From a virus (taxonomy: Duplodnaviria > Caudoviricetes): a DNA stretch of 35,808 bases. The DNA is taken from positions 1 through 35,808 of the IMG/VR virus record IMGVR_UViG_3300046786_000603, one strand, 5' to 3'. The notes under the pieces were generated by a model. The model searched no databases and had not been told where the DNA came from. It saw only the letters and a list, made by a program, of their open reading frames with translations. The position numbers were made by a program, and so were the translations under genes. Numbering within the stretch: the stretch's first letter is position 1; each line of letters begins with the position of its first letter. Shown here piece by piece: positions 11,148-28,631 of the stretch.

Positions 11148-11148
11148 T

Positions 11149-11694: not shown

Positions 11695-11700
11695 AAAAAT

Positions 11701-11946
11701 ATGTCGATAAAAATACTCAAAATTGAAGAAGCAAAAGAAGTTGAAAAGCTTTGCAAAAAATATGGAGAAGTGTGCGAAGTTCTATATGGAAAAGCAAAGG
11801 TTGAATACTTCTGTGACAATACCGGTGTCACAATTGAGAAAGGAAGTGAATGTGCAGTTGTGCTCGTTCTTCCTAGCAAGTCTCATCACAACTATCAACA
11901 TCAAAAAGACATAATGAAGGATTATATTGATGAACCACATTCCTAA
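11701..11946 (+). CDS. Hypothetical protein
   Basis: Operon packing; Cys-containing. Confidence 0.6.
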   Translation: MSIKILKIEEAKEVEKLCKKYGEVCEVLYGKAKVEYFCDNTGVTIEKGSECAVVLVLPSKSHHNYQHQKDIMKDYIDEPHS

Positions 11947-12265
11947 AAAGTTGAATGACGAGCTGAATGAAGATCCATATTATAAAAAATGTTGTCTTCA
12001 TTTTCTCGGTGGTTGTGGTGGACGCATAGAAAGACATCACGCTCTGATCTATGGTGGAAAACAATATCAAGCAAAATTCTGTATCCTTCCGGCTTGTCAT
12101 ACTCATCACGATATGGCAAGAAGGAGCGATATCAAAGAACGATTCGATTGGGTTCTACTTAATCGAGCGACAGATGTCGAACTGTCGATGATCAGCAAAG
12201 CGATTCCTTATACTTACGTTCGAGATACTCTCAATGAAAAGTTTGGGATCTATAAAATAAAATGA
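11930..12265 (+). CDS. HNH-like/Ref-like zinc nuclease
   Basis: CC....C.GRIERHH...LPACHTHHD. Confidence 0.65.
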   Translation: MNHIPKKLNDELNEDPYYKKCCLHFLGGCGGRIERHHALIYGGKQYQAKFCILPACHTHHDMARRSDIKERFDWVLLNRATDVELSMISKAIPYTYVRDTLNEKFGIYKIK

Positions 12266-12831
12266 AACTAAAAAAAATATACTTCACAATATTGATCGTC
12301 ATCATTTCTATTCTTGTATCAGTAGGAATTGCGAAGTTGGCTTCAGACAGTCAACCTGTTATTCCTGAAGAACCTGTTCAAATAGATTGTTGCAAGGCTA
12401 AAGATATTGAAGAATTGAAAGAAGAAGTTTTGAAAATTCAAACAAATAAAGGACAGAATGAAAAAAAAGAAGTTCTTGTGGGTTCGAATACACAAGAACC
12501 GGCAGTTCAAAAACCTGCTGAATTACAAAGTAATCAGACACAGACTGAAGTGATAGTTCCAAATCAAACTTTCAATTTTATTATTGAAAAAGATTCTATC
12601 ACTTCACAAGAAGTGCCAACACAAGAAATGGCTAAATCTAAAACAGAACCAACTTATACAGTGACAAAGGAAGGTGAGATAATAAAATCAGATCTTCTCA
12701 TAGGAGATCTTCAGAAGTTTGTTGCTTCTTTGAATACATACCTGACTTGGAAAAAGAAAGCGAATAGTGCTTCGGTCGAAGAACTAACAGAAATGCTTTC
12801 ATCAAATGGCTACAAAATCACTGAAAAATAA
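12262..12831 (+). CDS. Membrane-anchored hypothetical protein
   Basis: N-terminal TM and a Q/E/T-rich linker. Confidence 0.65.
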   Translation: MKLKKIYFTILIVIISILVSVGIAKLASDSQPVIPEEPVQIDCCKAKDIEELKEEVLKIQTNKGQNEKKEVLVGSNTQEPAVQKPAELQSNQTQTEVIVPNQTFNFIIEKDSITSQEVPTQEMAKSKTEPTYTVTKEGEIIKSDLLIGDLQKFVASLNTYLTWKKKANSASVEELTEMLSSNGYKITEK

Positions 12832-13165
12832 AGAATCGGATATTCAGAATTCTATTTGTGAATATCTCGAAGGAAGAGATCGTTGCTTCTTCAGACTGAA
12901 CAACATTCCTGCTTTCAATAAAGGTGCAGGGGGAAAGATCACAATGAGAAGACTTCCGAAATATACTCCAAAAGGATTGCCGGATATCATAGTTGTTGTT
13001 GGTGGTCTCTTCTACGCTCTCGAAGTAAAGAAGCCGAAGACTGAAACTTCAGCAAAAACTTATCAATCAAAAGATCAAAAAGTATTTCAAGCAAGAGTGG
13101 AAGCACACAGTGGAAAATACTTTGTCGTGAGATCTCTCGAAGACGTCAAAGCAATAGGGTTATGA
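12806..13165 (+). CDS. VRR-NUC domain nuclease (Holliday junction resolvase-like)
   Basis: ESDIQ..I..YL, GLPDII, LEVK, S..QK.F, YFVVRS. Confidence 0.88.
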   Translation: MATKSLKNKESDIQNSICEYLEGRDRCFFRLNNIPAFNKGAGGKITMRRLPKYTPKGLPDIIVVVGGLFYALEVKKPKTETSAKTYQSKDQKVFQARVEAHSGKYFVVRSLEDVKAIGL

Positions 13166-13599
13166 AAAAACAAATCGTCACAATCAAATACTCTCGTCCT
13201 TTCTTTTGGAGAATATTGAAAATTTTCTTCCCTGATTATGATCCTGATGGCACAGTAGCAGTTGCATTCGGAAGGATCACATACGCAAATATTGAAATCC
13301 CTGAAGATTATCAAGTTCACGAATCGATTCACTTGAGACAACATTGCTATTCTTATTTCGTTGCAGTCTTTTGGTGGATCTTATATCTCTTCTCGAAGAG
13401 ATTCAGATATTCTCAAGAACTCGAAGCATTCAGAGAACAATATAAATGGATCATCGTGAATCAACCTTTTTGGAGAAGAAAGAAACTTGATGAATACGCT
13501 CATCAACTCTCATCATCTCTTTATGGAAGTATGGTCTCATTCGAAGAAGCAAGAGAAAGGATCAAGGAAAGAAAAGTTGATAACTCTCACATCTTATGA
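13162..13599 (+). CDS. HExxH zincin-like protein
   Basis: VHESIHLRQ...ELEAF. Confidence 0.6.
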   Translation: MKKQIVTIKYSRPFFWRILKIFFPDYDPDGTVAVAFGRITYANIEIPEDYQVHESIHLRQHCYSYFVAVFWWILYLFSKRFRYSQELEAFREQYKWIIVNQPFWRRKKLDEYAHQLSSSLYGSMVSFEEARERIKERKVDNSHIL

Positions 13600-14090
13600 A
13601 AAAGAAAACACTAAAAAAGAAAAAACAAAAACACACAAGAACCAAAAATGAATTCAGAGATAATTTTGTTGTAGAGACAAAAGACTTTGCCGGTGAGATC
13701 GAGAAGGGAGCAGATGGAAAAAACAAGCTGAAGGTGTCATCTCCTATTTTCTATCAACATCAGCTTAATAAATTCAAAGCAGGTGAAAAAGTATCTCTTT
13801 ATATTTCAAGCAAACGTCCAAAAAGAAGTGAACGACAAAATAGATATTATTGGGGAGCGTATCTTCCGATCATTGCTGAAGAGACAGGGGAGCGAAACAT
13901 TCAAAAGCTTCACGAATTATTCTCTGGAATGTTTCTTACTGAAGGAGTTTATAATGTGCTCGGAAGATCTGTTCGTCTGAAGAAGAGCACCACAGAATTG
14001 AACAAGTCAGAGTTCTCTCAATACATTATGGATATTGAAGCAGAGACAGGAATTGAAGCTCCACCGACAGAGAACTATTTTGACAAGTAG
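13596..14090 (+). CDS. NinB/Orf-family recombination protein
   Basis: RSERQNRYYW..LHE..STTELNKSEFSQYI. Confidence 0.75.
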   Translation: MKKKTLKKKKQKHTRTKNEFRDNFVVETKDFAGEIEKGADGKNKLKVSSPIFYQHQLNKFKAGEKVSLYISSKRPKRSERQNRYYWGAYLPIIAEETGERNIQKLHELFSGMFLTEGVYNVLGRSVRLKKSTTELNKSEFSQYIMDIEAETGIEAPPTENYFDK

Positions 14091-14098
14091 AAAGCAAG

Positions 14099-14146
14099 TT
14101 ATCCACACACATCGCTTTTGTTTTGATACTAGAAAAGTGCTAAAAT
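14099..14146 (+). promoter_or_regulatory. DnaA box plus extended -10 promoter
   Basis: TTATCCACA 14099-14107; TTGTTT 14118-14123, 17 nt, (TGC)TAAAAT 14141-14146. Confidence 0.65.
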
Positions 14147-14190
14147 AGATATATTACAAGGTCAATTATAAATAACTTTTACAAAAAATT

Positions 14191-14646
14191 ATGCAAAATA
14201 TATTTCAGTTTCTTACATATATGATTCTCGGTAAACGATGGATCAAATGGGATATGCTTCAGGGCTACAAAATGGCAATCTTCGTGAATGAAGTCGAGAT
14301 TGATATGAACAAAGCGAAACTCGCTGAAGCTCAATCTCGAAAAGAAAAACTTGAGAACGATCTCAAGGAACTCGAAGGAACTCCATTGAAGGAAGCTATC
14401 GAACTTCTTCCGGAAAGCGAGAAGAACGATTCAAAAGCGATCTATGATATGGAGAAAAAGATCAAAGGAGAAAGAGCTGAACAAGTTCAAGTCTTCAAGA
14501 ATCAAATCAAGTCAGCTCACACTGAAGTCGAAATGGCAGATGGTGAACTTGCTCGTGTTTATTCAATCACTTATGGAAACCGAAGGAAGTATGACTTCGT
14601 TCGCAATTATAAAATAAAGGCAACTTATGCCGATCGTAACAAATAA
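14191..14646 (+). CDS. Coiled-coil hypothetical protein
   Basis: E/K-rich helical ORF after a promoter. Confidence 0.65.
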   Translation: MQNIFQFLTYMILGKRWIKWDMLQGYKMAIFVNEVEIDMNKAKLAEAQSRKEKLENDLKELEGTPLKEAIELLPESEKNDSKAIYDMEKKIKGERAEQVQVFKNQIKSAHTEVEMADGELARVYSITYGNRRKYDFVRNYKIKATYADRNK

Positions 14647-14651
14647 AATTT

Positions 14652-15176
14652 ATGCCAAAAACAAAATCAAAAAGTCAGGAAAGGAGAGAAGCAGTTCAAG
14701 GAAAAGAATTGCTTGATCTCGATTCAAGTATAGTCGCAACTTCAATCTTCTTCTTCGAAGCAATGAAGATGGATAAGTTTCTTCAATGGTCAATCAAAAT
14801 GACACTAAAGACTCAACTTCCACAATCATTTCGTGATTATAAAGTGAAGCTTTCATTCAATGAAGAACCTTTACTCGTAAAGATTCAAGATCTTGAAAGA
14901 AAGATGGCAAATGTTGAAAGCGAGAATCAGCTCTTCGAAGGAAACAAGAAGACTCAAATCAAGAATATCAAAGAAGAGATCAGTGAGATCGAACAAGAAC
15001 TGAAGGATTCAAAGAATCAAACTCCGGAGATCGAGTTCGAAGGAACAATCGAGAAGCTAGAATACAAAAATGCTGACACAGTGATCTCTCTTTGGATTCC
15101 TGCTATGGTTGCGAATCAAATCAATGATGTTCGAGACATCTTGAAAACTTATAAGATCGAACTAATAAGAGAATAA
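14652..15176 (+). CDS. Coiled-coil hypothetical protein
   Basis: Operon packing. Confidence 0.65.
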   Translation: MPKTKSKSQERREAVQGKELLDLDSSIVATSIFFFEAMKMDKFLQWSIKMTLKTQLPQSFRDYKVKLSFNEEPLLVKIQDLERKMANVESENQLFEGNKKTQIKNIKEEISEIEQELKDSKNQTPEIEFEGTIEKLEYKNADTVISLWIPAMVANQINDVRDILKTYKIELIRE

Positions 15177-15180
15177 TCCT

Positions 15181-15420
15181 ATGACTAGAAATTACGCAAA
15201 AGAATTGGGAATGAGATTGATGTCTTCTTCAGAGAAGACTCAAAAAGGTCTTCCATACTATGCTTCAAAGAATTGGACTCTTCGAAGGCAGGGAATTCAG
15301 AATCGAATCGCTCGTCAAATCATTCAAACACAAAAAAGAAAGGTCGCTCGTATGGAATACGCTCGAAAGAATGATATTCCTTATTATCAAGTGTCTAATG
15401 CGATGGCAGGTGTCGCTTAA
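15181..15420 (+). CDS. Small basic hypothetical protein
   Basis: R/K-rich; fits the gap exactly. Confidence 0.6.
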   Translation: MTRNYAKELGMRLMSSSEKTQKGLPYYASKNWTLRRQGIQNRIARQIIQTQKRKVARMEYARKNDIPYYQVSNAMAGVA

Positions 15421-15424
15421 AATT

Positions 15425-15757
15425 ATGGATAAAGCAAATCAAGAAAAAGGTCAAGGTTTAGTATCAGGGGCAGTTACACTGGAAAAAAATGTGTATGAGT
15501 TGAAAGACTTCAATGCAGGAGTTCCTTCACAACAAATCTGTTTTTACAGACTGAATCCAGATGGGACTTCTGAAAATGGAACTACTCTCGAAGAGATGTT
15601 GAATGTCTCAATAGAGAGACTCAATCAACTGAACAGAAGATTCCCTTGCAGAGAAAACTCTGTTGCTATTACAAAAATGGAAGAAGCTCTTATGTGGTTG
15701 GATAAGAGAACAAAAGACAGAAAACTTCGTGGAGTTGAAGGAACTCATCAAATATAA
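15425..15757 (+). CDS. Tad1/Acb2-family anti-defence nucleotide-signal sponge
   Basis: NGTT.E.ML.V.I.RL..L...FPCRENSVAITKMEEALMWL.KRT.DR..RGVEGT; start at ATG 15425. Confidence 0.8.
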   Translation: MDKANQEKGQGLVSGAVTLEKNVYELKDFNAGVPSQQICFYRLNPDGTSENGTTLEEMLNVSIERLNQLNRRFPCRENSVAITKMEEALMWLDKRTKDRKLRGVEGTHQI

Positions 15758-15759
15758 TT

Positions 15760-15960
15760 ATGAAACCGGAACAAATACTCGAAAAACTAAAAGGAATCAG
15801 AGAAGAATTATCTTGCAATGGAAATGCGTGTAATGCTTGGTATGTCATCAATGATCTTATTGAAGAAATAGAGAAACCAACAATTGATCCATCTTTATGC
15901 TCGAAGTGTCAAAGTGCTTCAGTATCGGTCGAAGGATCAAGATGTAGTGACTGCATATAA
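15760..15960 (+). CDS. Small zinc-finger protein
   Basis: CSKC..CSDC. Confidence 0.55.
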   Translation: MKPEQILEKLKGIREELSCNGNACNAWYVINDLIEEIEKPTIDPSLCSKCQSASVSVEGSRCSDCI

Positions 15961-15965
15961 ATATT

Positions 15966-16202
15966 ATGGAAAACGATTTTTTGAAAGCATTATCGAAAGC
16001 AATTCAAGATGAACTCAAAGGAGTTGTCGAAGAGAGATATGAGATCCTGAAGAAAGAACTCATTGAAAAGCTAGACAAGGACAAGGATCAAGTTATTGCA
16101 GGAATAGTTCTGAATCTTGAGAAGAGTGTGACAATAGACAGATTTGAAAACAAGTTAGTGATCGAAGTAAAAACTGAATCATTTAAGTCTGAAGTGGTAT
16201 AA
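15966..16202 (+). CDS. Hypothetical protein
   Basis: Operon packing. Confidence 0.6.
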   Translation: MENDFLKALSKAIQDELKGVVEERYEILKKELIEKLDKDKDQVIAGIVLNLEKSVTIDRFENKLVIEVKTESFKSEVV

Positions 16203-16366
16203 TGACATTACAAAGATACGAAGAAGTTCCGGCAGTATGCCAAAACAAAAGTTGTCCTTATTATCGATCCTTCGAACTTGTAGATGTGAACGATGTCAAA
16301 GACGATGAAGAAGGGAATGGATATATAATATGTCCAGAGTGCAAACAAAAAATAAGTATTGAATGA
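16202..16366 (+). CDS. 54-aa zinc-ribbon protein (not in ORF track)
   Basis: CQNKSC..CPEC; TAATG and ATGA overlaps at the two ends. Confidence 0.7.
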   Translation: MTLQRYEEVPAVCQNKSCPYYRSFELVDVNDVKDDEEGNGYIICPECKQKISIE

Positions 16367-16887
16367 AAACAAAAACCAAAACAACTAAAGAGAAGAAACC
16401 AAAGAAACCACCAAAGGTTTCTCCTGATATAGAGAAGGATCTCAAGACATTGAAACCTTCTCATATTCGGTTTGTGTATCTTCTTCTTGGTGGTGAAGAT
16501 GGAAAGTGTTTCAACAATGCAACTCTTGCATACCTTCGAGCATTCGAAATAGAAACAACAACAAGGAAAGTGAAGCAAGATGATGGTTCTGAAGATTATA
16601 CTTCAGCATATAAAAGTGCAAAAACAAATGGATCTAAACTACTGACAAATGCTAACATTCAGAACTTGAAATCAAAGCTCTTATTGGAAGTAGGATTCGA
16701 TCCTGCAACAATCAAGAAACGCTTCGCTGAACTTGCTTATCAAAACAAAAACCTTCCTATTGCTCTCACAGCAACAGATCGAGTTGCGAAGATTGCAGGA
16801 ATCCTTACAGATGACAAGAAGGTTGATATACCACAGCTTGAAGCTTTGGGTAATGCGATCAGAGAGATTCTGACGCCGAAGAAATAA
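16363..16887 (+). CDS. terS: Terminase small subunit
   Basis: F...Y...NATLAY.RAF..SAKTNGSKLL.N.NIQ; ALTA...AKIAG. Confidence 0.75.
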   Translation: MKTKTKTTKEKKPKKPPKVSPDIEKDLKTLKPSHIRFVYLLLGGEDGKCFNNATLAYLRAFEIETTTRKVKQDDGSEDYTSAYKSAKTNGSKLLTNANIQNLKSKLLLEVGFDPATIKKRFAELAYQNKNLPIALTATDRVAKIAGILTDDKKVDIPQLEALGNAIREILTPKK

Positions 16888-16889
16888 AT

Positions 16890-17081
16890 ATGATAACTCA
16901 AAAAGATGTAAAAATTGAAGGTCGTGAATGTTATGCTAAATTCTATTCAGGTGAGAATGAGTTTGAAGGTCAGGTATTCATTCAAGCTGATATGGAATAC
17001 GAAGGAAAAAGATATGGATTCAATCTTGTTCTTGATCAAAAGAAAATCGGTGAACTTAAACAATTTCTAAAAGATAAATAA
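16890..17081 (+). CDS. Hypothetical protein
   Basis: Operon packing. Confidence 0.6.
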   Translation: MITQKDVKIEGRECYAKFYSGENEFEGQVFIQADMEYEGKRYGFNLVLDQKKIGELKQFLKDK

Positions 17082-17084
17082 TAT

Positions 17085-17312
17085 ATGGCAAAAACAAATA
17101 CAAAAAAACATAAGTGCAAAGATTGTGAGAAATCACACACTGAATCAATTGGAACTTATATGGTGAGCACATACACATATCGAAATCACGATGGGAATAT
17201 CTACATTGACGCATTTTCAATCTTCGATATGTTCAACTCAATGGGACTGACTGATCAAGCAAATGCTTTTATGAGATCAATATCAGGTGTTAGAAAGAAA
17301 AAAAGTGAATAA
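17085..17312 (+). CDS. Hypothetical protein
   Basis: Operon packing; CKDC. Confidence 0.6.
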   Translation: MAKTNTKKHKCKDCEKSHTESIGTYMVSTYTYRNHDGNIYIDAFSIFDMFNSMGLTDQANAFMRSISGVRKKKSE

Positions 17313-17313
17313 T

Positions 17314-17457
17314 ATGCAAATACTAAACTGCGAACAATATCATAATCCATTCACGACTCCATACGCTTGTATAACTGTTCTTGATAGCTTGGCTTTCTTT
17401 GGTGCATTCGTATTTGTTGTCTTCTGTATTATTATCTTTAGTTCATCACAGAAATAA
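17314..17457 (+). CDS. 47-aa membrane protein (not in ORF track)
   Basis: MQILNCEQ..AFFGAFVFVVFCIIIF; fills the gap exactly. Confidence 0.6.
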   Translation: MQILNCEQYHNPFTTPYACITVLDSLAFFGAFVFVVFCIIIFSSSQK

Positions 17458-17458: not shown

Positions 17459-17710
17459 ATGAAAATCGGAAGACTTCACAAAATGGGAGAAGCGATCAAA
17501 CTCAACAAGTGGTATGTTGGGATTGAGATCTTAAAGTGTCCACCGACAATGGTCGGAATCTTTCGTCCTTATTTCTTTTTTATTTGTGTAAAGTTCAAGA
17601 CACTCGGAGAACCATATATGATTGGTGGAAAGAAAGAAGAAAAGATCGGTGGTTGGAAAAGATGGTCGTCTCCGATTGGTATTGTATTTGAAATAATAAG
17701 ATATAAATGA
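17459..17710 (+). CDS. Hypothetical protein
   Basis: Start moved to ATG 17459. Confidence 0.55.
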   Translation: MKIGRLHKMGEAIKLNKWYVGIEILKCPPTMVGIFRPYFFFICVKFKTLGEPYMIGGKKEEKIGGWKRWSSPIGIVFEIIRYK

Positions 17711-17865
17711 TCAGAACAATAAGACAATGGCTTGAATCAAGGGGTGGAAGAACAGAGAATGATCTTCTCTATGATGAAAAGGGTGCATTCGTTTTGATGG
17801 GAAATGGTCGTGGTGCACATCAGAAGGTTCGTGTGCCTGAATATTTATACGATGATAGAAGATAA
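17707..17865 (+). CDS. 52-aa hypothetical protein (not in ORF track)
   Basis: MIRTIRQWLES..; ATGA and TAATG overlaps at the two ends. Confidence 0.65.
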   Translation: MIRTIRQWLESRGGRTENDLLYDEKGAFVLMGNGRGAHQKVRVPEYLYDDRR

Positions 17866-18353
17866 TGCAAATAAAATACGAAAAACAAATAACAAAGAAA
17901 CCATTTCTAAACGAAACAATTTCGCAATGGTATAAGATATCAAAGTTTGACATAAAGATCTGCGAACTCGACTTCCCTATCTTTTGTCTTCGTCTCGCAG
18001 TATGTTTCGGAAGCTATTCTGAATATCAGAAAATGTTAAGGGAATATTATGGAAGAGAATTCGAAGGTGGAATTGATCCTGTTGCTTGTTATACTTGGAT
18101 AGATGATCCGGATACTCACGAGAAAAGAAAGTTTTTATTGATCACAGAGAATGAATGGAGTGCAAAAGATTATGGAACTTTAGCACACGAGATTCATCAC
18201 TTTGTTCACTTGTCTTTGAAAGATATTGGAATTGATTATGGAGAAGGGGGAGAAGAGTTGTTTGCTTACTTTCAAGGATATGTGATGGAGCTAGTAGTAA
18301 AAGCTTTTGTTGAGCTGAAGAAGTCAGACAAGTCAAAGAAAAAAATGATATAA
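17865..18353 (+). CDS. HExxH zincin-like protein
   Basis: TLAHEIHH...EELFAY. Confidence 0.65.
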   Translation: MQIKYEKQITKKPFLNETISQWYKISKFDIKICELDFPIFCLRLAVCFGSYSEYQKMLREYYGREFEGGIDPVACYTWIDDPDTHEKRKFLLITENEWSAKDYGTLAHEIHHFVHLSLKDIGIDYGEGGEELFAYFQGYVMELVVKAFVELKKSDKSKKKMI

Positions 18354-18364
18354 TATATTTATCA

Positions 18365-18544
18365 ATGCCTTACATCTTAAAGAAAAACACAAAGAAGAAA
18401 TCAAAGTGGAAGAAGTGGCTCATCATTCGTGGAGACACAAAGGAAACAGTTGCTTCATCAGACACTAGAGCGAAAGCTTTGAGATCAATAGGATATCGTG
18501 AAGAAGCTCTCAAAGAAGATAAGAAAGTCATCAAAGTTTTATAA
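18365..18544 (+). CDS. 59-aa basic protein (not in ORF track)
   Basis: MPYILKK..; TGATATAAT 18346-18354 upstream; TAATG coupling downstream. Confidence 0.65.
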   Translation: MPYILKKNTKKKSKWKKWLIIRGDTKETVASSDTRAKALRSIGYREEALKEDKKVIKVL

Positions 18545-18645
18545 TGAAAGAAGAACAATACATCACAATTGATAAGAAGAAAGCAAGACGAGTTCTATAC
18601 TCGATCATTATATTTTTATTATTAGCTTTATTCTTCAAACAATAA
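18544..18645 (+). CDS. 33-aa single-TM protein coupled to the amidase (not in ORF track)
   Basis: MKEEQYITIDKKKARRVLYSIIIFLLLALFFKQ*; TAATG overlaps at both ends. Confidence 0.65.
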   Translation: MKEEQYITIDKKKARRVLYSIIIFLLLALFFKQ

Positions 18646-19244
18646 TGAAATGCTCTCAAGGTCAAAATGATATGCTTGGCTTCGCAGGAATAAACATTCC
18701 AAAGTATTTGATTGTTCATCATACCGGTGGAACTGACGCTGATCCTTTAGCTGATACATCGAATCATACCTTCGAGATCGTAGATAACTATCACAAGAGT
18801 CTCGGTTGGGGAAAGATCGGATATCATTATTTCATCGACAAGAAAGGAAAGCTCACACAAGGAAGACTCGACACAGAGATCGGTGCTCATACCATCGGAA
18901 AGAACTCTCAATCACTTGGGATCTGTCTCGCAGGAAACTTTGACGCAACACTTCCAACTGAAGCACAGAGACAAACTCTTGGGATCTTACTGAAGAAGAA
19001 GACTGTCGAATATAAAATCTCACCTGAAGATATCTGTCCACATAGAGAGTTCGCTTCGAAGACTTGCTATGGCAACAAGCTTCACAATATGTGGGCAGAA
19101 GATCTCATTCGTGAAGTTCAAGCTCCTGTCTTCAATATGGAAGTATCAATCAATAAAGTGAAAACATACATCGAGCAACCAAAGAAGAAAGAGTCATTCT
19201 TCGCAGTGTTGCTTCGAATTATTATAAGTTTATTTTCAAAGTAA
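18645..19244 (+). CDS. N-acetylmuramoyl-L-alanine amidase (Amidase_2, T7 lysozyme type) endolysin
   Basis: IVHHT, IGYHY, GAHT, SLGICL.GNF, HRE..KTC. Confidence 0.92.
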   Translation: MKCSQGQNDMLGFAGINIPKYLIVHHTGGTDADPLADTSNHTFEIVDNYHKSLGWGKIGYHYFIDKKGKLTQGRLDTEIGAHTIGKNSQSLGICLAGNFDATLPTEAQRQTLGILLKKKTVEYKISPEDICPHREFASKTCYGNKLHNMWAEDLIREVQAPVFNMEVSINKVKTYIEQPKKKESFFAVLLRIIISLFSK

Positions 19245-19245
19245 T

Positions 19246-19752
19246 ATGCTAATACAAAAACTAAAAAAAGAAGTGAATGATACAGGTGCTCTTTTGATTA
19301 AGGTTGGAGACAATGTTCCATTCAGTATCAATTCAGAAGAGTATGAAGAGAAGCAAGAATGGTTCATCAAAGGTGGATATTCAATCGTGCCATCATTTAC
19401 ACAAAACAATCTGCAACCTAGAACTTTGCTCTGTGCTCGTCTTGAGAAAGATATCACGATCTCAATCAATCGTCCCCTAGTCAATGGAGAAAAGCTTCCT
19501 GCTAATTCTGAAGAAATTGGAAGTAAATTGGAAGTTGAACAACTCGATTCATTGATCAGTGCAGTATTCTTCGACAAGAAGACGCTTGAGATGGCAGGAA
19601 AAGAGATCCGAATCAGAGACATACTCCCATACAGTGAAGCTTGTGTCGAATCATTTAAGAAAAGATTCCCTGATCGTGAAGTTGATCTGAATGATTTTGC
19701 AATAGTGACGATCGATTGGAAGAAAAAGAACATTCAGATTCGTCCGGTGTAG
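19246..19752 (+). CDS. Hypothetical protein
   Basis: Operon packing. Confidence 0.65.
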   Translation: MLIQKLKKEVNDTGALLIKVGDNVPFSINSEEYEEKQEWFIKGGYSIVPSFTQNNLQPRTLLCARLEKDITISINRPLVNGEKLPANSEEIGSKLEVEQLDSLISAVFFDKKTLEMAGKEIRIRDILPYSEACVESFKKRFPDREVDLNDFAIVTIDWKKKNIQIRPV

Positions 19753-19800
19753 TTATCAACACGAGAATCGCTTCCCCTTGCATTATTCTTGCAGTATAAT
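19753..19800 (+). promoter_or_regulatory. DnaA-like box plus -10 of the tRNA promoter
   Basis: TTATCAACA 19753-19761; TATAAT 19795-19800. Confidence 0.55.
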
Positions 19801-19816
19801 AAAAGAGTAAAGTCAT

Positions 19817-19888
19817 AGCAGGGTAGAGAAGTGGTATCTCGCAAGGTTCATTCCCTTGAGGTCGGACGTTCGATTCGTCCCCCTGCAA
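19817..19888 (+). tRNA. Initiator-type tRNA-Met (CAT) with atypical U37-C38 and A29:U41
   Basis: Full cloverleaf: acceptor GCAGGG/CCCTGC with A1xA72 mismatch, D stem GAGA/TCTC (A11:U24), anticodon stem CAAGG/CCTTG with loop TTCATTC, T arm GGACG-TTCGATT-CGTCC, A73; CCA not encoded. Confidence 0.92.
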
Positions 19889-19917
19889 CATTATCAATAA
19901 TTTATTTGAAAAAGATT

Positions 19918-21030
19918 ATGAAAAATACAAATGAAAAGAATCCAAAGTTGATCAGCAATGTTTTACTAGAAGTGAAGCCGAAAGACTTCATTGCAGGATT
20001 CGAATCAGGAGTAGCATTCGAGATCAGAAACGAGTCAGGAGATTGGGAGAAGTATATGTCTATGCCTGAAAAGCAATACAAGGAAGGTATCTTCGACACT
20101 ATGTCTTGCACCAACTTCGACACGCTGAAGATCATTCAAGGTCAAATAAATTTCTTACTCAAAAACAATAAGATCCCTGAAGACAAGAGAGTTCTTATGA
20201 CTGCTCTTGGATATTTCGATGGCGATGGAATGGTGAACTTCTCTGAAGCTTTCAATGCCATCACATCAGGAACGACAGCTCAAGGAAATTATCTTCAGAA
20301 TCCACCTGAAGCAGTTCGCAAATTTGGACTTCTTCCACAGAAGGACTTCATCACACCGGAGAATGTTTCAAACTTCGATGAATGGATCGATCCAAAGAGA
20401 ATCACACCGGAGATGTATGCTAAAGCAAAACGATTCAATGAGATCTTTGATGTCTCATACGAATGGATCTGCACCGGCACACCAAACGATGAAGCTCTTA
20501 TTCGTCACGCAAAACAAGCTCCGATCTCAATTGCGATTGGACTATGTGGAGATTGGTTCAATGCTGATGGCAAGATTGGTCTCTGTGACAATAAAAATCC
20601 ACATCACGCAGTCTCACTCATTGCGATCAACAACACTCTATACAAGCGAATATCTGATCAATACGTGCCATTCCTGAAGACACTCGACACGAAGTATCAC
20701 ATCGCTTGGGCTTTGAAGATCATCGTGACAGTGAAGCAACCGGTCAAACCTTCTCAACCTATCAAGTTTCAATGGACTCGTGGTCTCAAAGCAGGAGATC
20801 GTGGATATGATGTCGTAATGCTTCAGAGAGTTCTTATGCTCGAAGTTCCGACAGTATTCAACATCAAGAATCCGACTGACTTCTTTGGTGCAAGAACATT
20901 CGCAGGAGTCGTCGCTCTTCAAGAGAAGTATGCTTCAGAGATCCTTGCTCCATTCAAGCTGAAGAAAGGCACAGGAGCAATTCCGATGAATGGGACAACT
21001 TATAAATTCTTAAATAAAAAATATGCTTAA
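19918..21030 (+). CDS. Papain-like cysteine peptidase with C-terminal peptidoglycan-binding domain
   Basis: Q....TMSCT, PHHAV, SDQY; LKAGDRG.DV..LQ..L..FFG..T...V..LQEKYASEIL; start moved to ATG 19918. Confidence 0.72.
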   Translation: MKNTNEKNPKLISNVLLEVKPKDFIAGFESGVAFEIRNESGDWEKYMSMPEKQYKEGIFDTMSCTNFDTLKIIQGQINFLLKNNKIPEDKRVLMTALGYFDGDGMVNFSEAFNAITSGTTAQGNYLQNPPEAVRKFGLLPQKDFITPENVSNFDEWIDPKRITPEMYAKAKRFNEIFDVSYEWICTGTPNDEALIRHAKQAPISIAIGLCGDWFNADGKIGLCDNKNPHHAVSLIAINNTLYKRISDQYVPFLKTLDTKYHIAWALKIIVTVKQPVKPSQPIKFQWTRGLKAGDRGYDVVMLQRVLMLEVPTVFNIKNPTDFFGARTFAGVVALQEKYASEILAPFKLKKGTGAIPMNGTTYKFLNKKYA

Positions 21031-21292
21031 AAGAATCATCAACTGGATACTCAAATTGTTTCGACGTGATACCTATGGAATCACTCAAGCTTTCATCGAC
21101 AGGAAGAAAGCGAACACGAAAGATGTTGCACCTTCTAAAAAGGATATGCCAAAGAAGATGGTTGTTCCACGATGGGAGAAACCTTGCAAACATTGTGGAG
21201 ATCCTATGATGGTTTCAATCGGTCAGATTGTTTTCACACATCGGTCTTGTCGAACCGATTATCGAAGACACTTGAGATCTCGATACGCATAA
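21023..21292 (+). CDS. Basic zinc-finger-like protein
   Basis: CKHC..H..C. Confidence 0.55.
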   Translation: MLKRIINWILKLFRRDTYGITQAFIDRKKANTKDVAPSKKDMPKKMVVPRWEKPCKHCGDPMMVSIGQIVFTHRSCRTDYRRHLRSRYA

Positions 21293-21293
21293 T

Positions 21294-21713
21294 ATGAAAG
21301 CTTCAAAATTCCCTAGAGAATATATTGGTTTCGATCTTGGAGAGAACAAGTTTCTTGATGAGAATGCTTTGATGAGTAAAGGGATCACACTCGCACCTGA
21401 TGGACTTCCCTATTTCAATCAGATCCCTTCAAATGACTTCGTGCTTCTTTGGTTCTCCGGACAGAAGGACAAGAACAATCAAAAGATCTATGAAGGTGAT
21501 ATCTGCAAGATGAATGTGCAGAACGAATGGGGATCTTTCATTCAAGCTCTTGGTATTATGAGATGGGTTGAGCACAGTTCTCAATTCATTCTCACGATGG
21601 GGGCACAGGTTGGGAATCAATACTTCCACGTGGTTGATGTTGAGAAGGTTGGGCACGAGTTGACTCACCCTGATCTATTACAAGAGATAAACGATAAAGC
21701 TAAAAAAGTCTAA
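21294..21713 (+). CDS. YopX-family protein
   Basis: SGQKDKN.QKIYEGDI..EKVG....HPDLL. Confidence 0.8.
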   Translation: MKASKFPREYIGFDLGENKFLDENALMSKGITLAPDGLPYFNQIPSNDFVLLWFSGQKDKNNQKIYEGDICKMNVQNEWGSFIQALGIMRWVEHSSQFILTMGAQVGNQYFHVVDVEKVGHELTHPDLLQEINDKAKKV

Positions 21714-21913
21714 TGGATAGAAAAGAAAAAGGATCAGTTGTTGAAGCATTGCCATCACTCAAGTTCAGAGTTGAATTTGCTGATGGGAAAATAATGTTTT
21801 GTTATCTTGCCGGTCGTCTGCACAAGAACTTCATCAGAGTTATTGTTGGCGACAAAGTGGAAGTGGTCATTCCATCTCAAGGCAATATCGGTAGGATAGT
21901 CAAACGATTCTAA
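21713..21913 (+). CDS. infA: Translation initiation factor IF-1 homologue
   Basis: G.VVEALP...FRVE.......YLAGRL.KNFIRV..GDKVEV.......GRIV.R. Confidence 0.93.
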   Translation: MDRKEKGSVVEALPSLKFRVEFADGKIMFCYLAGRLHKNFIRVIVGDKVEVVIPSQGNIGRIVKRF

Positions 21914-21920
21914 AATATGA

Positions 21921-22151
21921 ATGGCACGTGTCACAAAGTCTTTACAAGCACCAGAGCAAGGATATCGTCACAGAGATCATCGCTCTCAAAAAGGTCGGTC
22001 TCAATCAAAGAGTAAATACAAGCGAAAGGTGAGCGTTGCTTTCAAAACAAAGAAACAGACTGAAGCAGAATTGGCAAAGCTCAATGAAGCAGATCTGTAT
22101 GAGATACAAATGATTCCGATTCGTAATCGATGGAGAAATGAAAAATGGTAG
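21921..22151 (+). CDS. Small basic hypothetical protein
   Basis: R/K-rich; overlaps the TerL start. Confidence 0.6.
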   Translation: MARVTKSLQAPEQGYRHRDHRSQKGRSQSKSKYKRKVSVAFKTKKQTEAELAKLNEADLYEIQMIPIRNRWRNEKW

Positions 22152-23617
22152 AAGCAAAATATGACAAACTAAAGATTCGAGATATGGTCGCTTCGATGTA
22201 TAAGAACGAAGATGGAAATCCTATCTATCTCACACCTTCACAGGTGGAGATTTTTGCGTCTATTGCAATGCGTCTTCACCCTAGAATTCACTGTGAGACA
22301 TTCACACGTTTTGGAAAGTCTCGCACCACAGCTCTTGCAGTGTTGACTCGTGCTTCATCATATCCGGAGAAGTGGGCTATTGTGGCAGGAACAAAAGACA
22401 AAGCGAAGATCATTATGAACTATGTGAATGCTCACATCTTTGATAATGAGTTCACAGCTTCTCGCTTTCGTATGGACAAAGGAGACAGTGCAGAAGCAAT
22501 CAGACGTCATCGAAACAAAAACCATATCACCTTCGATGTTGGGAATGGATTGATCGGTGAAATTTTTATATGTTCAGCAAAAGAAGCTCTTGGATTCGGA
22601 GCACAGAATGTTGTTGAAGACGAATCAGCAATCATCAATGATCAAGATCACGCTTTGGTTATGCGTATGCTTGGAGACAATCCACACGACAACTTTCTTT
22701 TTAAGATCGGAAACCCTTTCAATCGAAATCACTTTTTGAAATCTCGTCTTGATCCTGACTATCACAAAATACTTATTGACTGTTATCAAGGAATCCACGA
22801 AGGACGTATCACTCAAGAGACAATCGATGAAGCAAGTAAATATTCTTTTTTCAAAATTTTATATGAATGCAAATTCCCTGAAGCCGATGAGATCGATGAT
22901 AAAGGTTGGAGTTATCTTTTGACTGAAGAAGATATCAAGAGAGCACAAGATCGATGGGCAACAATGACTCCGACAGGTGCAAAGAGACTTGGAAACGACA
23001 TCGCTCGTGGTGGTCGAAACTTCAATGTGTGGTGCTTACGTGGAGACAACTATGCAACATATCTTGAAAAGAATCACGAAAACAATTTGATGAATGTCGC
23101 AGGAAAAAACATCGCTCTATCTCAAGAACATCACGTCTTGAATGGAAATGTATTTCTTGATGATACCGGAGTCGGTGGTGGAGTGACTGATAAGATGTTA
23201 GAAGAAGGATATTCCCCTGTCGCAGTTCAGCTTGGAGCTAAAGCAACAGAACTCGAAACGAGATTCAATCCAAAGTCAGGAAAAGAAGAAGACATTCCTG
23301 CCTATGCGAATATGAGAGCACAGCTCTATGCAGGGAAAAGGGGAGTTCAGTATTGGGTAAAGCATATTGGTGCTCTTGATCCTGATCAGAATTGGGAAGA
23401 GTTGACTCGTATCAGATACAAGAAGAATGGATCAGGAGTTACGATGATTGAATCGAAAGAAGATATGCGAAAGCGTGGAGAAGAATCTCCTGATGACGCT
23501 GACGCTTTTATGCTTACGTTTGCAGACTCAAACTTTGTCGAAAAGAAGGAGTTCAAAATGCCTGATCCGAAAGCAATTCTCGATCAAGGTAATCGACAAG
23601 GTTGGAATCTTTTATAA
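22145..23617 (+). CDS. terL: Terminase large subunit
   Basis: TRFGKS Walker A, VVEDE Walker B, GNP, GNDIARGG, DDTGVGGG, SPDDADA. Confidence 0.95.
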   Translation: MVEAKYDKLKIRDMVASMYKNEDGNPIYLTPSQVEIFASIAMRLHPRIHCETFTRFGKSRTTALAVLTRASSYPEKWAIVAGTKDKAKIIMNYVNAHIFDNEFTASRFRMDKGDSAEAIRRHRNKNHITFDVGNGLIGEIFICSAKEALGFGAQNVVEDESAIINDQDHALVMRMLGDNPHDNFLFKIGNPFNRNHFLKSRLDPDYHKILIDCYQGIHEGRITQETIDEASKYSFFKILYECKFPEADEIDDKGWSYLLTEEDIKRAQDRWATMTPTGAKRLGNDIARGGRNFNVWCLRGDNYATYLEKNHENNLMNVAGKNIALSQEHHVLNGNVFLDDTGVGGGVTDKMLEEGYSPVAVQLGAKATELETRFNPKSGKEEDIPAYANMRAQLYAGKRGVQYWVKHIGALDPDQNWEELTRIRYKKNGSGVTMIESKEDMRKRGEESPDDADAFMLTFADSNFVEKKEFKMPDPKAILDQGNRQGWNLL

Positions 23618-23618
23618 G

Positions 23619-23660
23619 TTATACACAGAACTATCTTGTATAAAAAAATAATGTTATAAT
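23619..23660 (+). promoter_or_regulatory. DnaA box plus extended -10 before portal
   Basis: TTATACACA 23619-23627; TGTTATAAT 23652-23660. Confidence 0.6.
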
Positions 23661-23675
23661 ATATTTATAAATTGA

Positions 23676-25385
23676 ATGGCAGAAACTAAACAACTTGTGA
23701 AAACATACGATGATGAAACTTTGATCGAATCACGTGTTCAGGCGTATCGAGAAGGTGCATACAATCATCAAGAAAGACGTCACTCCGAATGGCGTGAAAC
23801 TTATTCTTTGTATAGAGATCGTGTCTTCGTGAATCGTTTGACTCAAAGACAATCAGTGAATGTTCCTTTGATGAAGGAATCTATTCGAACAATGCTATCG
23901 AAGACAGATGAATTTACTGATCTTTATTTTGAATCACTATCCGGAGATAAACAAAAAGAAATATTCGTGAATGAATATTGGAAGTGGTTTTATAATGAAG
24001 ACAATCTTGAACTAAAAGATATTGTGGACAAGAAGCAAGTCGCTCTTTATGGTCGTTCAATAATGAAATTGAACCTAATGCAAGGACGTCCAACTATTGA
24101 TATTCTTGAACCTTACGATTGGCTTTGTGATAGATATGCAGATCCGGCAGATATCGAGCACACAGCGAACTATCAAGCACACGTGAATATCTTTAAGTCT
24201 ATTTCTGATATTGAAGCAGATGAAACTTTTGATAAAGAAGGAGTTGCAAAACTTCGATTGAAATATGCTGAATCTTTGGGACTCGCTCTTTCTGAAGAGA
24301 ATGTGAAATCACTTCAAGCAAAGAATGAGCGTATGCAAGATATGGGACTTTGGGACATAAACAATCCGTCAGTTGGTCAGACTTATGTTGAATTGAATGA
24401 GCACTATATCAGACTATGGGACGAAGAATCAGAGCGTCTTGTGATCCACCTTCGAATCACAGCAGATGGAATCACTCTATTCAATAAGAAACTTGAAGAT
24501 ATGTTTGGAATCAACTTCTTCCCTTTCATCACTTGGGCAGATGATATCGAGAAAACAGATATTTGGTCAGATGGTATGGGAGATATTATTCGAACACCGA
24601 ATAAGATCTTGAATTCTTGGTTCTCTCAAATGGTAGAGAATAGAGTTCTTCGAAACTTTGGAATGCACTTCTATGACGCAACTGCTTCAGACAAATGGAT
24701 TCCACAAACTTATGATCCTGTTCCTTTCGGTTGGTATCCAACAGCAGGAGATCCAAACAAGGTGACAAAGCAAGTAAACATTCCTGATCTATCTGAATCA
24801 ATGGACGAGATGAACTTCCTTATTGGTATGGTAGAACGTGCCACAGCGTCCACAGCGACAGAGAAAGGAGTTGATGAAGGGAAAGATGTCACTCTTGGTC
24901 AAGTGAAGCTGATGTTGGCAAATAGTAATCAAAGAATCACATCGATCGCAAAGTTCTATCGTCTTGCAAGAATCGAGCTTGGTGAGAAATGGTATAAGTT
25001 CGTGATGGCAAATGAGAAATGGATCGAACCGGTGAAACTATTTAAGAAATCTTATAAAGGAAATTATTATTCTGAAGAAGTGAATGTTGCTGATTGGAAA
25101 GATGAGATCGGATATGCTTGTAAAGTTATGAGCACAGCAGAGCGTGATCAGAAAACTATTGAATCAATTCAGAAGCTTCAAGCTATTTCAGGAATGTTCC
25201 CTGAAAATGTTCCCTTAAAACAAATACTCAAAAAGAAAGCACTTGATATGGTCGAACTATCACCTGAAGAGATTGATGAAGTGATGTCATTCGATGAACA
25301 GAATGGTCTTAATGGAGAAGAAAATGCAGGGCTAGATAAAAGCAAGATATCCACACCAGAAAATCCTGCAATTCCTGTGCAATAA
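23676..25385 (+). CDS. Portal protein (P22-like)
   Basis: 569 aa directly after TerL; portal-like helical and FPF..W..G patterns. Confidence 0.85.
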   Translation: MAETKQLVKTYDDETLIESRVQAYREGAYNHQERRHSEWRETYSLYRDRVFVNRLTQRQSVNVPLMKESIRTMLSKTDEFTDLYFESLSGDKQKEIFVNEYWKWFYNEDNLELKDIVDKKQVALYGRSIMKLNLMQGRPTIDILEPYDWLCDRYADPADIEHTANYQAHVNIFKSISDIEADETFDKEGVAKLRLKYAESLGLALSEENVKSLQAKNERMQDMGLWDINNPSVGQTYVELNEHYIRLWDEESERLVIHLRITADGITLFNKKLEDMFGINFFPFITWADDIEKTDIWSDGMGDIIRTPNKILNSWFSQMVENRVLRNFGMHFYDATASDKWIPQTYDPVPFGWYPTAGDPNKVTKQVNIPDLSESMDEMNFLIGMVERATASTATEKGVDEGKDVTLGQVKLMLANSNQRITSIAKFYRLARIELGEKWYKFVMANEKWIEPVKLFKKSYKGNYYSEEVNVADWKDEIGYACKVMSTAERDQKTIESIQKLQAISGMFPENVPLKQILKKKALDMVELSPEEIDEVMSFDEQNGLNGEENAGLDKSKISTPENPAIPVQ

Positions 25386-25395
25386 ATGTTATAAT
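25347..25395 (+). promoter_or_regulatory. DnaA-like box plus extended -10
   Basis: ATATCCACA 25347-25355; TGTTATAAT 25387-25395. Confidence 0.5.
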
Positions 25396-25405
25396 AAATA
25401 AATCA

Positions 25406-25741
25406 ATGGACGAAATATTCGCAAAATTTGGATTGAAGAGAGAAGATATGAATACTCAAGAGCTTGAGACTCTTGAGCGTTGGGCACAATCACTTTCTCA
25501 ATCACAGGTCACTATTCCTGATCTGAAAAATTATCTCATCGAAATGATCACAGCTCTTGAAAGGGAGTTGTCAGGTCACGATTATCCGAAAGGTTTTGTT
25601 GAGTTGCTATTCAGGAAAAGACGAGAGCGTCACCTGAAGGCACGACTTCACAATTATATTCTCTTGAGAGATTTTCTAATCGCTCCGGAGAAAGCAAGGT
25701 CGTATGTGGAGAAACATTTAAGTAATTTGAAAAAAACATAA
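25406..25741 (+). CDS. Head-region hypothetical protein
   Basis: Between portal and scaffold. Confidence 0.7.
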   Translation: MDEIFAKFGLKREDMNTQELETLERWAQSLSQSQVTIPDLKNYLIEMITALERELSGHDYPKGFVELLFRKRRERHLKARLHNYILLRDFLIAPEKARSYVEKHLSNLKKT

Positions 25742-25890
25742 TGGTAAAGAAAAAAAAAGTTGTGAAGACAAAAAAGGTAGTTGTAAAAAAAGCTCCAAAG
25801 AAATCTTCAAAGAAAGGTGGTAAAATGAAAGCAGATCCAAAAATGGGAATGATGGATAAAAAAATGATGAAAGGTGTGAAAGTTATGTAG
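25741..25890 (+). CDS. 49-aa Lys/Met-rich histone-like protein (not in ORF track)
   Basis: MVKKKKVVKTKKVVVKKAPKKSSKKGGKMKADPKMGMMDKKMMKGVKVM*; TAATG coupling. Confidence 0.7.
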   Translation: MVKKKKVVKTKKVVVKKAPKKSSKKGGKMKADPKMGMMDKKMMKGVKVM

Positions 25891-25940
25891 CACCATCATT
25901 GAGTCGAATATTATAAATAGCTTAATTTAAGAAAATTCAA

Positions 25941-26252
25941 ATGGATACACAATCAAAAGAAATGCTTGAAGCAATTTTAGCAAAAAGTAAAGATTCATTA
26001 TCAACCGAAGAACTTGGTTTCTTGATGGCTCGTCGTTCTTACTTGAATGACGCAGACACAGCAAGATATGCTGATCTGATCAAGAAGCACGAGAAGGGAG
26101 AATTGTTCTCTACTTCTTCAGAAAAAGATCTTGGAGAAATGTCTTTGAAAGAATTGAAAGCAATTGCTAAAGATGAAGAAATTGATATCACTGGTCTAAA
26201 GAAAGAAAGTGATATCATTGACGCTATCAATGAAGCTCGTGGAGAAGAATAA
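25941..26252 (+). CDS. Protein with C-terminal Rho-N/HEH-like nucleic-acid-binding motif
   Basis: L.EMSLKELKAIAK...I..TGLKK.SDIIDAI. Confidence 0.7.
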   Translation: MDTQSKEMLEAILAKSKDSLSTEELGFLMARRSYLNDADTARYADLIKKHEKGELFSTSSEKDLGEMSLKELKAIAKDEEIDITGLKKESDIIDAINEARGEE

Positions 26253-26319
26253 AAATTCTCTAGTCGTATTATTCAAATAACTATGCCAAACCCTTGAAAC
26301 ATAGGACGGCTTGAATCAA

Positions 26320-27147
26320 ATGAACACAAAAAAAGAAAATGATCTAACCCCTGAAAATGGGACGATCGAAGATCCAAAGGAAGATCTTGAAATAATTCCT
26401 GAAGGAGAAGACGTTGAATTGGAAGACAAAGACGTGATTCCTTCCGAAGATGATGATGAAGGCGAAGACGATGGTGCAGAAGATGATCTTGAAGAAGATC
26501 CAACTCCTGAACCTGAACCGACTCCTGAACCACCAAAAAAGGAAGCTCCGGCAGTTGACTTTAAGAAGAAATTCGGAGACTCAACTCGCAGGAATCAAAT
26601 TGTAGAATCTCAACTAAAAGAGCTACAAAAAGTCATCGGAGACATTACACAACAAGAAATACCAACAGACGAGGAAATGAGAATCACCGATCCGGATTGG
26701 GAATATAGATCTGACTTCGAAAAGAATATGGCAGTGAAAACTGTTGTGCTCGAACGAAGACAGAATAAAATTTTCACTACGCTCGGCAATATCACAAAGG
26801 AAACTGAAGACTCATCGAAACTGGTTCAATACATTGAATCAGAACCAAAGTTGAAAGGAAAGGAAGACGACTTCTATGAATTCGCAACCAAACCTTCCAA
26901 CAAAGGTGCTTCAATGGAAGTCTTACTCGGAGCTTTTCTTTACGAAGTAAAAGACGAAGAGATCCCTAGTGATCCGAATCCAGATCCAAAACCGAAGGAA
27001 ACTCCCCCTAGATTATCTAGGGCAACCCCTACCGGTGGAAATCCCCCTTTGAAAAAGAATGTTGCTTACACTCCTGAAGAGATAAAGCACATTCGACTAA
27101 CAGATCACAAGAGATATAATAAACTTGTGCGTGAAGGGAAGATATAA
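26320..27147 (+). CDS. Scaffolding protein
   Basis: Acidic/Pro-rich N-terminus, coiled coil, basic C-terminal helix; precedes the capsid gene; start at ATG 26320. Confidence 0.8.
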   Translation: MNTKKENDLTPENGTIEDPKEDLEIIPEGEDVELEDKDVIPSEDDDEGEDDGAEDDLEEDPTPEPEPTPEPPKKEAPAVDFKKKFGDSTRRNQIVESQLKELQKVIGDITQQEIPTDEEMRITDPDWEYRSDFEKNMAVKTVVLERRQNKIFTTLGNITKETEDSSKLVQYIESEPKLKGKEDDFYEFATKPSNKGASMEVLLGAFLYEVKDEEIPSDPNPDPKPKETPPRLSRATPTGGNPPLKKNVAYTPEEIKHIRLTDHKRYNKLVREGKI

Positions 27148-27178
27148 TCTGAAAGTATTTCTCTAACAAAATATTTGA

Positions 27179-28267: not shown

Positions 28268-28275
28268 ACCATTGC

Positions 28276-28332: not shown

Positions 28333-28369
28333 GAATCATTATAAGAAAGCTAACAAAACAAATATTCAA

Positions 28370-28591: not shown

Positions 28592-28631
28592 TCGGTCGAA
28601 TTTTTATCAAATCTAATTTATATATATTTCA

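Follow-up and report, generated by a model that had tools for sequence, protein, structure and literature searches.

A phage initiator-type tRNA with an altered anticodon loop and the matching start contexts of late genes in phages of Shine-Dalgarno-poor hosts

Why do some phages carry a single initiator tRNA, and why should the anticodon loop of that tRNA differ from the one its host uses? Both questions are raised by the 35,808-nucleotide stretch of phage DNA analysed here (the window), in which ARAGORN finds a single tRNA, Met(CAT), at 19817-19889. The genome is circular, as the initial annotation had proposed, its ends overlapping by 131 nt with one mismatch, and almost all genes lie on the plus strand (Table 1). 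The host is likely a member of the Patescibacteria, because the named best matches of the phage SSB are Paceibacterota, Nomurabacteria, Pacebacteria and Patescibacteria-group proteins and because one of the three terminase relatives found in genome bins lies in a Patescibacteria bin; the other two, in bins labelled Gammaproteobacteria and Clostridiaceae, are taken as binned phage contigs.

Table 1. Features of the window discussed in the text, with coordinates in the whole stretch.
Feature	Position	Strand	Remarks
Early/replication block	6620..17457	+	Replication initiator, DnaC-like loader, Sak4, exonuclease, SSB
Small-terminase-like gene within early block	16361..16887	+	GAATG start; overlaps upstream stop; weak PHROG 51 match, E 5e-5
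Mixed block	17459..21713	+	Amidase, tRNA, YopX-like; starts 6 A, 4 T at -1
Promoter-like site ahead of tRNA	19753..19800	+	TTATCAACA box, TTG-N8-TTG, TATAAT; putative function
Initiator-type tRNA-Met(CAU), positions 1-73	19817..19888	+	Sequence, fold, ARAGORN
U37-C38, complement of A(-1) and G(-2) in GAAUG starts	19852..19853	+	Host: A37-A38
IF-1 homologue	21713..21913	+	First gene of all-A block
Late block, part 1	21713..35808	+	Large terminase, portal-position gene, major capsid, virion genes; A(-1) throughout
Portal-position gene GAATG start	23674..23678	+	
Major capsid gene GAATG start	27177..27181	+	
Late block, part 2, round the circle	1..5907	+	End of large gene from 35355; starts 5104, 5241, 5674; A(-1)

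Bacterial initiator tRNA-fMet is marked by a CAU anticodon, a 1x72 mismatch, the pairs G2:C71 and C3:G70, A73, A11:U24, three G:C pairs at 29-31:39-41 and a loop with C32 and A37-A38 (standard tRNA numbering is used throughout). The phage tRNA folds as a cloverleaf with a CAU anticodon and has the mismatch (A1xA72), G2:C71, C3:G70, A11:U24 and A73 (position 19888), and its loop reads U32 U33 C34 A35 U36 U37 C38 (UU-CAU-UC), with U37 at 19852 and C38 at 19853. Sequence and fold thus bear out the marks and the loop first described for it. Two canonical marks are absent: the anticodon stem, CAAGG/CCUUG, has only two G:C pairs, with A29:U41, and the loop has U32, U37 and C38. We therefore file the molecule as an initiator-type variant and not as a canonical member. 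The stem is no separator from the host type, since the host initiators L296 and L297 share the same A29:U41 stem. CCA is not encoded. Nor is U37 an assembly error, since the same loop recurs in eight clusters of related terminase loci (at 90% identity). In one sequencing run (X5) the tRNA is covered by a single related contig of 151 nt, for which positions 19861 and 19864 are the only differences listed; the other three of the four runs checked gave no cover of the tRNA region. In the relatives L143, L144 and L127 the UU-CAU-UC loop and the 1x72 mismatch are kept and A11:U24 is lost (L143 and L144 have lost G31:C39 as well), and in these three the loop is more conserved than the classic initiator marks.

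The starts of the window divide by gene block. On a curated list of starts, and with the block boundaries of the initial annotation, T stands at -1 (TATG) in 21 of the 27 starts from 6620 to 17314, all six exceptions overlapping the upstream gene, while A stands at -1 in 20 of 20 starts from 21713 round the circle to 5674; the stretch between them, 17459-21294, has six A and four T. The early count, the mixed stretch and the six GAATG starts (16363, 21921, 23676, 27179, 35355 and 5241) agree on recounting with what had been reported, as does the late count of A, but the TAATG stop overlaps among late starts number five (21713, 25741, 31039, 32970 and 5104) and not four as then stated; the late start at 22145 also overlaps. 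With overlapping starts removed, the early-versus-late comparison that had been called for becomes TATG in 19/19 versus AATG in 14/14 (Fisher p 1.2e-9). Since the block boundary had been picked by eye, we added a circular scan over all boundaries, the score of which was reached by 0 of 5000 shuffles, and the same early/late split was returned by a gene caller blind to positions -1 and -2. An apparent depletion of U(-2) in late starts was discarded, because the filter itself takes out TAATG overlaps. TATG is kept by the three genes that directly follow the tRNA, and the all-A block begins after them; this order suits a tRNA that is produced before it is needed but is no proof of it. Late genes also favour G at +4 (14/20 vs 6/27 early), as do those of relatives with the tRNA when the second residue is taken as a proxy (49/73 vs 94/286); the G at +4 and the U at -3 of late starts are left unexplained by pairing of 37 with -1 and of 38 with -2.

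Does the late A(-1) go with the tRNA among relatives? Terminase searches yielded 88 clusters at 90% identity, of which 8 have a U37-C38 tRNA, 1 has an A37 initiator, 38 lack an initiator-type Met tRNA across 3.5 kb or more of upstream sequence (an absence that mostly holds for the locus only) and 41, with less than 3.5 kb upstream, are unlabelled; clusters with fewer than five late starts were left uncounted. Late starts have A(-1) in 65/73 cases in seven U37 clusters (GA in 19), compared with 81/286 in 29 clusters in which no Met tRNA was found (T in 169, GA in 4), and the per-cluster difference in late A(-1) is clear (Mann-Whitney p 7.5e-5). Relatives without the tRNA, which had been named as a possible refutation, mostly keep T(-1) in their late genes, and the cluster with the A37 initiator behaves in the same way (A 4 and T 11 of 17). 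Within the U37 clade, T stands at -1 in 67% of the 49 starts that lie beyond 5.5 kb on the upstream side of the terminase, and the portal-position gene starts with GAATG in 10/10 rows of the clade versus 0/12 outgroup rows. The sister L134, whose record is 82% complete and contains no Met tRNA anywhere, has late A in 5/14. The U37 clusters form one clade and require one change on the tree, and this is therefore one evolutionary contrast. Late A-richness also occurs where no tRNA was found: L248, whose record is 54% complete and contains no Met tRNA, has late A in 9/10, and the late starts of L273, L202, L267 and L155 are A-rich too. L248 (G006), L212 and L202 form a separate terminase clade; its late starts are A-rich, and its records, which are incomplete, contain no Met tRNA. 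In three members of the U37 clade an extra gene between terminase and portal starts with GAATG (L127 5591-7942, L143 11560 and L287 11610); inserted late genes therefore also carry this address.

The initial annotation had also asked whether the host initiator shares U37 and whether host genes prefer U at -1. A Met-tRNA arm pattern matched in 215 of 401 Patescibacteria genomes, some of the matches being elongators, and among the matches listed (there are 121 further) the loop is CU-CAU-AA in 150/150, a tally that includes G164, a genome marked unpublished. Hosts thus have A37. A looser search for non-A37 loops in the same 401 genomes gave 17 matches; 12 of these loci were checked, and none proved to be a Met tRNA. 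Host and phage initiators share the 1x72 mismatch, G2:C71, C3:G70, A11:U24, A73 and CAU, and some host copies even have the same CAAGG/CCUUG stem; they differ in that the host has C32, A37 and A38 where the phage has U32, U37 and C38 without an encoded CCA. In cultured phages the loop was CU-CAU-AA in all 3 examined of 20 blastn matches. Among 288 host starts (20 regions from 11 genomes) the base at -1 is T in 143, A in 76, C in 44 and G in 25, GA stands at -2/-1 in 6 (~2%), and an SD-like word precedes 38. The preference for T(-1) had thus been rightly anticipated, and it follows that early phage genes go with the host and that GA-AUG is nearly unused by it. Among five Patescibacteria genomes, a CCA-type enzyme family is present in 5/5 and fmt in 4/5.

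A second lineage came from pattern scans of viral contigs for initiator-type tRNAs with non-A37 loops (~640 stretches estimated). Counted as redundant rows, there are at least 55 with UC at 37/38, 49 with GC, 12 with UA, 10 with GU, 5 with GA and 2 with UG. Thirty-two of the loci belong to one Mu-like group, whose capsid relatives are Winogradskyella, Flavobacterium and Porphyromonas phages and whose hosts are Bacteroidota. A capsid scan, its query built largely on members that carry the tRNA, gave 27 tRNA-bearing clusters and 10 tRNA-less ones among the best 80 of 519 matches. Within these best 80, homologous genes have GA at -2/-1 in 108/353 starts of tRNA-bearing clusters versus 1/77 of tRNA-less ones and A at -1 in 210/353 versus 28/77, and the small-terminase-like gene starts with GAATG in 23/23 tRNA-bearing clusters versus 0/10 others. 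For comparison, GA precedes 43 of 2395 internal in-frame ATGs, and three tRNA-less clusters of equal GC have GA in 1/32. Five tRNA-less Mu-like records, examined whole (43-67% complete), contain no Met tRNA. Since gain or loss of the tRNA takes one to two changes on the Mu-like tree, this is a second evolutionary contrast, in another phylum, and the match between tRNA and late A first seen in the window recurs in it independently, G(-2) included.

The Mu-like GA starts are CGAATG in 26% of cases (-3 is T in 45% and C in 26%), so a stop codon is not required. Position -3 of GAATG starts is a pyrimidine in both lineages. According to the accessible text of PMC9976891, start selection in Bacteroidia takes no account of SD sequences and relies on upstream adenines, A-3 among them; A stands at -3 in 17% of Mu-like GA starts versus 59% in tRNA-less relatives, and the GA starts may on this account be poor host-type starts. 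In the Mu-like phages the tRNA comes first in the protease-capsid operon, and this operon and the terminase operon stand back to back, an arrangement that suggests late transcription of the tRNA. Early genes are less cleanly separated in the Mu-like records, G435 having 3 GA among 13 early genes when read by eye. A TGTAA-N-TTACA-type dyad upstream of the tRNA occurs in 20/27 tRNA-bearing clusters versus 0/10 (for example at ~6790-6865 of L330) and is a candidate regulator site travelling with the tRNA. One Mu-like subgroup has a tandem pair of U37-C38 tRNAs (L402 6765-6920; also L042, L048 and L065).

The early-late pattern is real and strong, and it is repeated in two unrelated phage lineages. 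Does it follow from any altered loop? In a third phage, L004, A stands at -1 in 8/11. In G412 (G37-U38) C(-1) occurs in 10/25 late versus 0/11 other starts, 6 of them ACATG as predicted, and in G422 (U37-A38) A(-1) occurs in 13/20 versus 4/21 other starts; the block boundaries of both were set after viewing, and the G412 capsid start differed between two start calls. G411 and G421, which also have altered 37/38, gave no significant start match. Single loci outside the two groups were pooled (n=31, 20 kb each, with early and late genes mixed and L013, from a giant-virus bin, excluded): SD-poor G37 loci have C(-1) in 19/75 against 22% in A37 controls, SD-poor U37 loci have A(-1) in 42/108 against 26% in controls, SD-rich U37 loci have A(-1) in 4/40, and two high-GC U37-C38 loci gave 1/12 and 0/11. 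Position 38 is altered next to a normal A37 in at least 120 loci (~700 estimated; AC 55, AU 54, AG 11), yet A37-C38 phage tRNAs show no match to G(-2) (1/15 in SD-poor and 17/73 in SD-rich phages), so that they gave a null result as an independent test of the 38/-2 pair, and SD-rich G37-C38 phages show no start adaptation either. A general rule by which any altered 37/38 acquires a matching start context is rejected on the single-locus pools and the altered-38 loci with A37. Altered-38 tRNAs are thus common without matching starts, and loop changes therefore have a further cause that is widespread; the simplest would be escape from a nuclease such as VapC. No C37 was seen in the initiator-type tRNAs of either scan of viral contigs, the counts of which are lower bounds, and this absence agrees with the toxicity of A37C reported for E. 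coli (PMC10018350). We also note that gene-level p values overstate independence, because the tree of either lineage shows roughly one event.

A published base exists for the first of the two pairs. In E. coli, base 37 of tRNA-fMet pairs with mRNA position -1, engineered A37U and A37G tRNAs work with a preference moved to the complementary base, and U at -1 is worth a modest ~23% (Hollerer and Jeschek 2023, PMC10018350, which cites a compensatory-mutation study in algal chloroplasts; position 38 does not appear in its accessible text). The 37/-1 pairing, which the initial annotation had given as proposed, is thus on firmer ground than it was there. Given the early/late match and its recurrence in an unrelated phage group, the phage tRNA likely steers ribosomes toward virion genes. 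The course of events would be as follows. The tRNA would be made from its own promoter-like site, would receive CCA, methionine and the formyl group from host enzymes and would compete with host tRNA-fMet. U37 would favour A at -1, as it does in the engineered E. coli tRNA, and C38, to judge by co-variation, may pair with G(-2), so that GA-AUG would become a near-private address. The host tRNA would then read early genes and the phage tRNA late genes, in a graded hand-over and not by a strict on/off switch, with ribosomes favouring virion mRNAs once the phage tRNA accumulates; the effect should be greatest where no Shine-Dalgarno helix fixes the start. That the phage tRNA biases initiation toward late mRNAs by way of this host-rare address is, in our judgement, probable.

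The same pairing would also arise if escape from a nuclease had come first, the loop having been selected to resist a host anticodon nuclease that cuts near 38/39 and the late starts having adapted secondarily to the surviving initiator. An enteric VapC cuts tRNA-fMet between A38 and C39 (PMC4105405, accessible text), C38 of the phage tRNA sits at that cleavage site, loop changes as a means of escape are a published hypothesis for phage tRNAs (PMC10264068), PIN-domain genes, as candidate nucleases, occur in 2/5 of the Patescibacteria genomes, and the many altered-38 loci with A37 (like the SD-rich G37-C38 phages) show loop change with no start adaptation. On the other hand, escape alone fails to predict either the TATG of 19/19 early starts or the GAATG of 23/23 small-terminase-like genes in a clade that has diverged, a change at 38 alone would suffice for escape and yet 37 is changed too, and no fMet-specific nuclease has been demonstrated in these hosts. 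We regard this order of events as unlikely. Because it shares its pairing with selection on late genes, co-adaptation of tRNA and late starts through pairing is very likely, whichever of the two came first.

Two further explanations dispense with pairing. The late AATG and GAATG contexts could have arisen at the level of the clade by drift or by other selection (A-rich unstructured leaders, stop-start coupling or an in-frame UGA before AUG), and about one origin per lineage, the TGAATG form of 21/23 GA late starts in the Patescibacteria-phage clade, the A-rich late starts of L248 and its kin and the 5/20 stop overlaps among the late starts of the window would all suit such a coincidence. It would nevertheless have had to produce the exact complement, GA, in two unrelated lineages with hosts of different phyla, and in the Mu-like lineage 26% of the GA starts are CGAATG. 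T is kept, moreover, by sister lineages that share the gene set, and overlaps had been excluded; we think such a coincidence quite improbable. Still more improbable, to our mind, is that the late start context is read by a protein of the phage, be it IF-1 or some other factor, with the tRNA as a passenger. The IF-1 homologue does head the all-A block, but it is also present in the tRNA-less outgroups L134, L135, L155 and L227; with IF-1, L134 has its late A in only 5/14, although L155 has 9/12, and no IF-1 match was found in 79 Mu-like loci or in L287, all of which have the GA signature. IF-1 is therefore not needed and is rejected as the partner of the tRNA: the homologue predates the tRNA in the lineage of the window and is not a required part. 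Of the redirected initiation first proposed for this locus, the match between tRNA and late starts has held, in relatives and in the Mu-like lineage, but the role given to the phage IF-1 has not, given those four outgroups with IF-1 and those 79 loci with no IF-1 match. Directly after the IF-1 gene, 21921-22151 encodes a small basic protein with a conserved HRDHR motif and no family match, which occurs in relatives with and without the tRNA.

For initiation biased by the phage tRNA, the nearest known case is that of the engineered tRNAs of Hollerer and Jeschek (2023), which involve the same base pair; their A37U is the very change in the phage tRNA and favours A(-1). Theirs were engineered in E. 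coli, with no phage use described in the accessible text of PMC10018350, whereas in the phage the change arose naturally, takes in U32 and C38 as well and has its counterpart in a single gene class. In the open full-text literature (PubMed Central and bioRxiv, with few subscription journals and no supplements) we found no link between a phage initiator tRNA loop and late-gene start context, and no prior report of natural phage use of 37/-1 pairing. Borges et al. (10.1101/2021.08.26.457843) describe suppressor tRNAs and stop-codon recoding in late and lysis genes; there too a phage tRNA and a late-gene-specific feature are proposed to gate late translation, in several lineages, but stop recoding acts in elongation by all-or-none read-through, whereas the tRNA described here would act at initiation, within the standard code and through start context. 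The late genes of the window are open under table 11 and its sole tRNA reads AUG, so the marks of recoding are absent. Phage bS21, found in Bacteroidetes phages and proposed to give late phage mRNAs an advantage (Chen et al. 2022, PMC9723584), is likewise a translation component in hosts that use few Shine-Dalgarno sites, but it is a ribosomal protein without an identified mRNA address, and the word 'initiator' is absent from the accessible text of that paper; no bS21 Pfam match occurs among the 59 window proteins scanned. Anticodon-loop changes by which phage tRNAs evade host nucleases (van den Berg et al. 2023, PMC10264068) lie at or beside the 38/39 cleavage site, as here, but that model, so far as the accessible text goes, makes no prediction about mRNA, whereas here late starts co-vary with the loop. 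The same text has enterobacterial phages generally avoiding tRNA-fMet genes.

If the tRNA does bias initiation toward late mRNAs, it offers an answer, readable from sequence, to the question of why some phages carry a single initiator tRNA. The co-variation is natural evidence that anticodon pairing at initiation extends beyond the triplet, as far as a putative 38/-2 pair, and it suggests how starts are chosen, and hijacked, in Shine-Dalgarno-poor hosts such as Patescibacteria and Bacteroidota; a start preference shifted by a 74-nt gene would be a simple part for orthogonal translation. A stronger version holds that an orthogonal start code of five letters, GA-AUG, has evolved more than once in phages whose hosts are SD-poor and serves as an early-to-late switch, possibly with host tRNA-fMet depleted in parallel. 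We put this forward tentatively and consider it somewhat doubtful; if true, it would make a natural initiator tRNA a selector of gene class and would be evidence that position 38 reads mRNA -2. A search for a phage nuclease or defence-type gene that removes host tRNA gave no PADLOC match in the 11 window proteins lacking an assignment.

The promoter-like site of the tRNA is similar in several relatives. The TTATCAACA box also stands ahead of the early and late operons and therefore gives no timing for the tRNA, and dating the tRNA from its promoter was given up. A sigma-70 scan was at chance level (37 vs 41.4), and Rfam at gathering thresholds gave no match in the window. A DnaA-box-like element, TTATCCACA, stands before operons of all three kinds (early, tRNA and late), ~30-45 nt upstream of TATAAT-like sites, at 6465, 7858, 14099, 19753, 23619 and 25347 of the window, and is arranged likewise in the relative G001; it is not enriched in host regions (7 vs 5.2 expected) and is possibly a phage promoter element.

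Two other genes of the window deserve mention. A very large virion-region protein (35355-35808 and 1-5104) spans the end overlap and has a weak SprT-like match. Within the early block, a small gene at 15425-15757 has a Pfam Acb2/Tad1 hairpin match barely above cut-off; its true start is apparently 15425 and not 15260, and its product is a possible anti-defence nucleotide sponge in a Patescibacteria phage.
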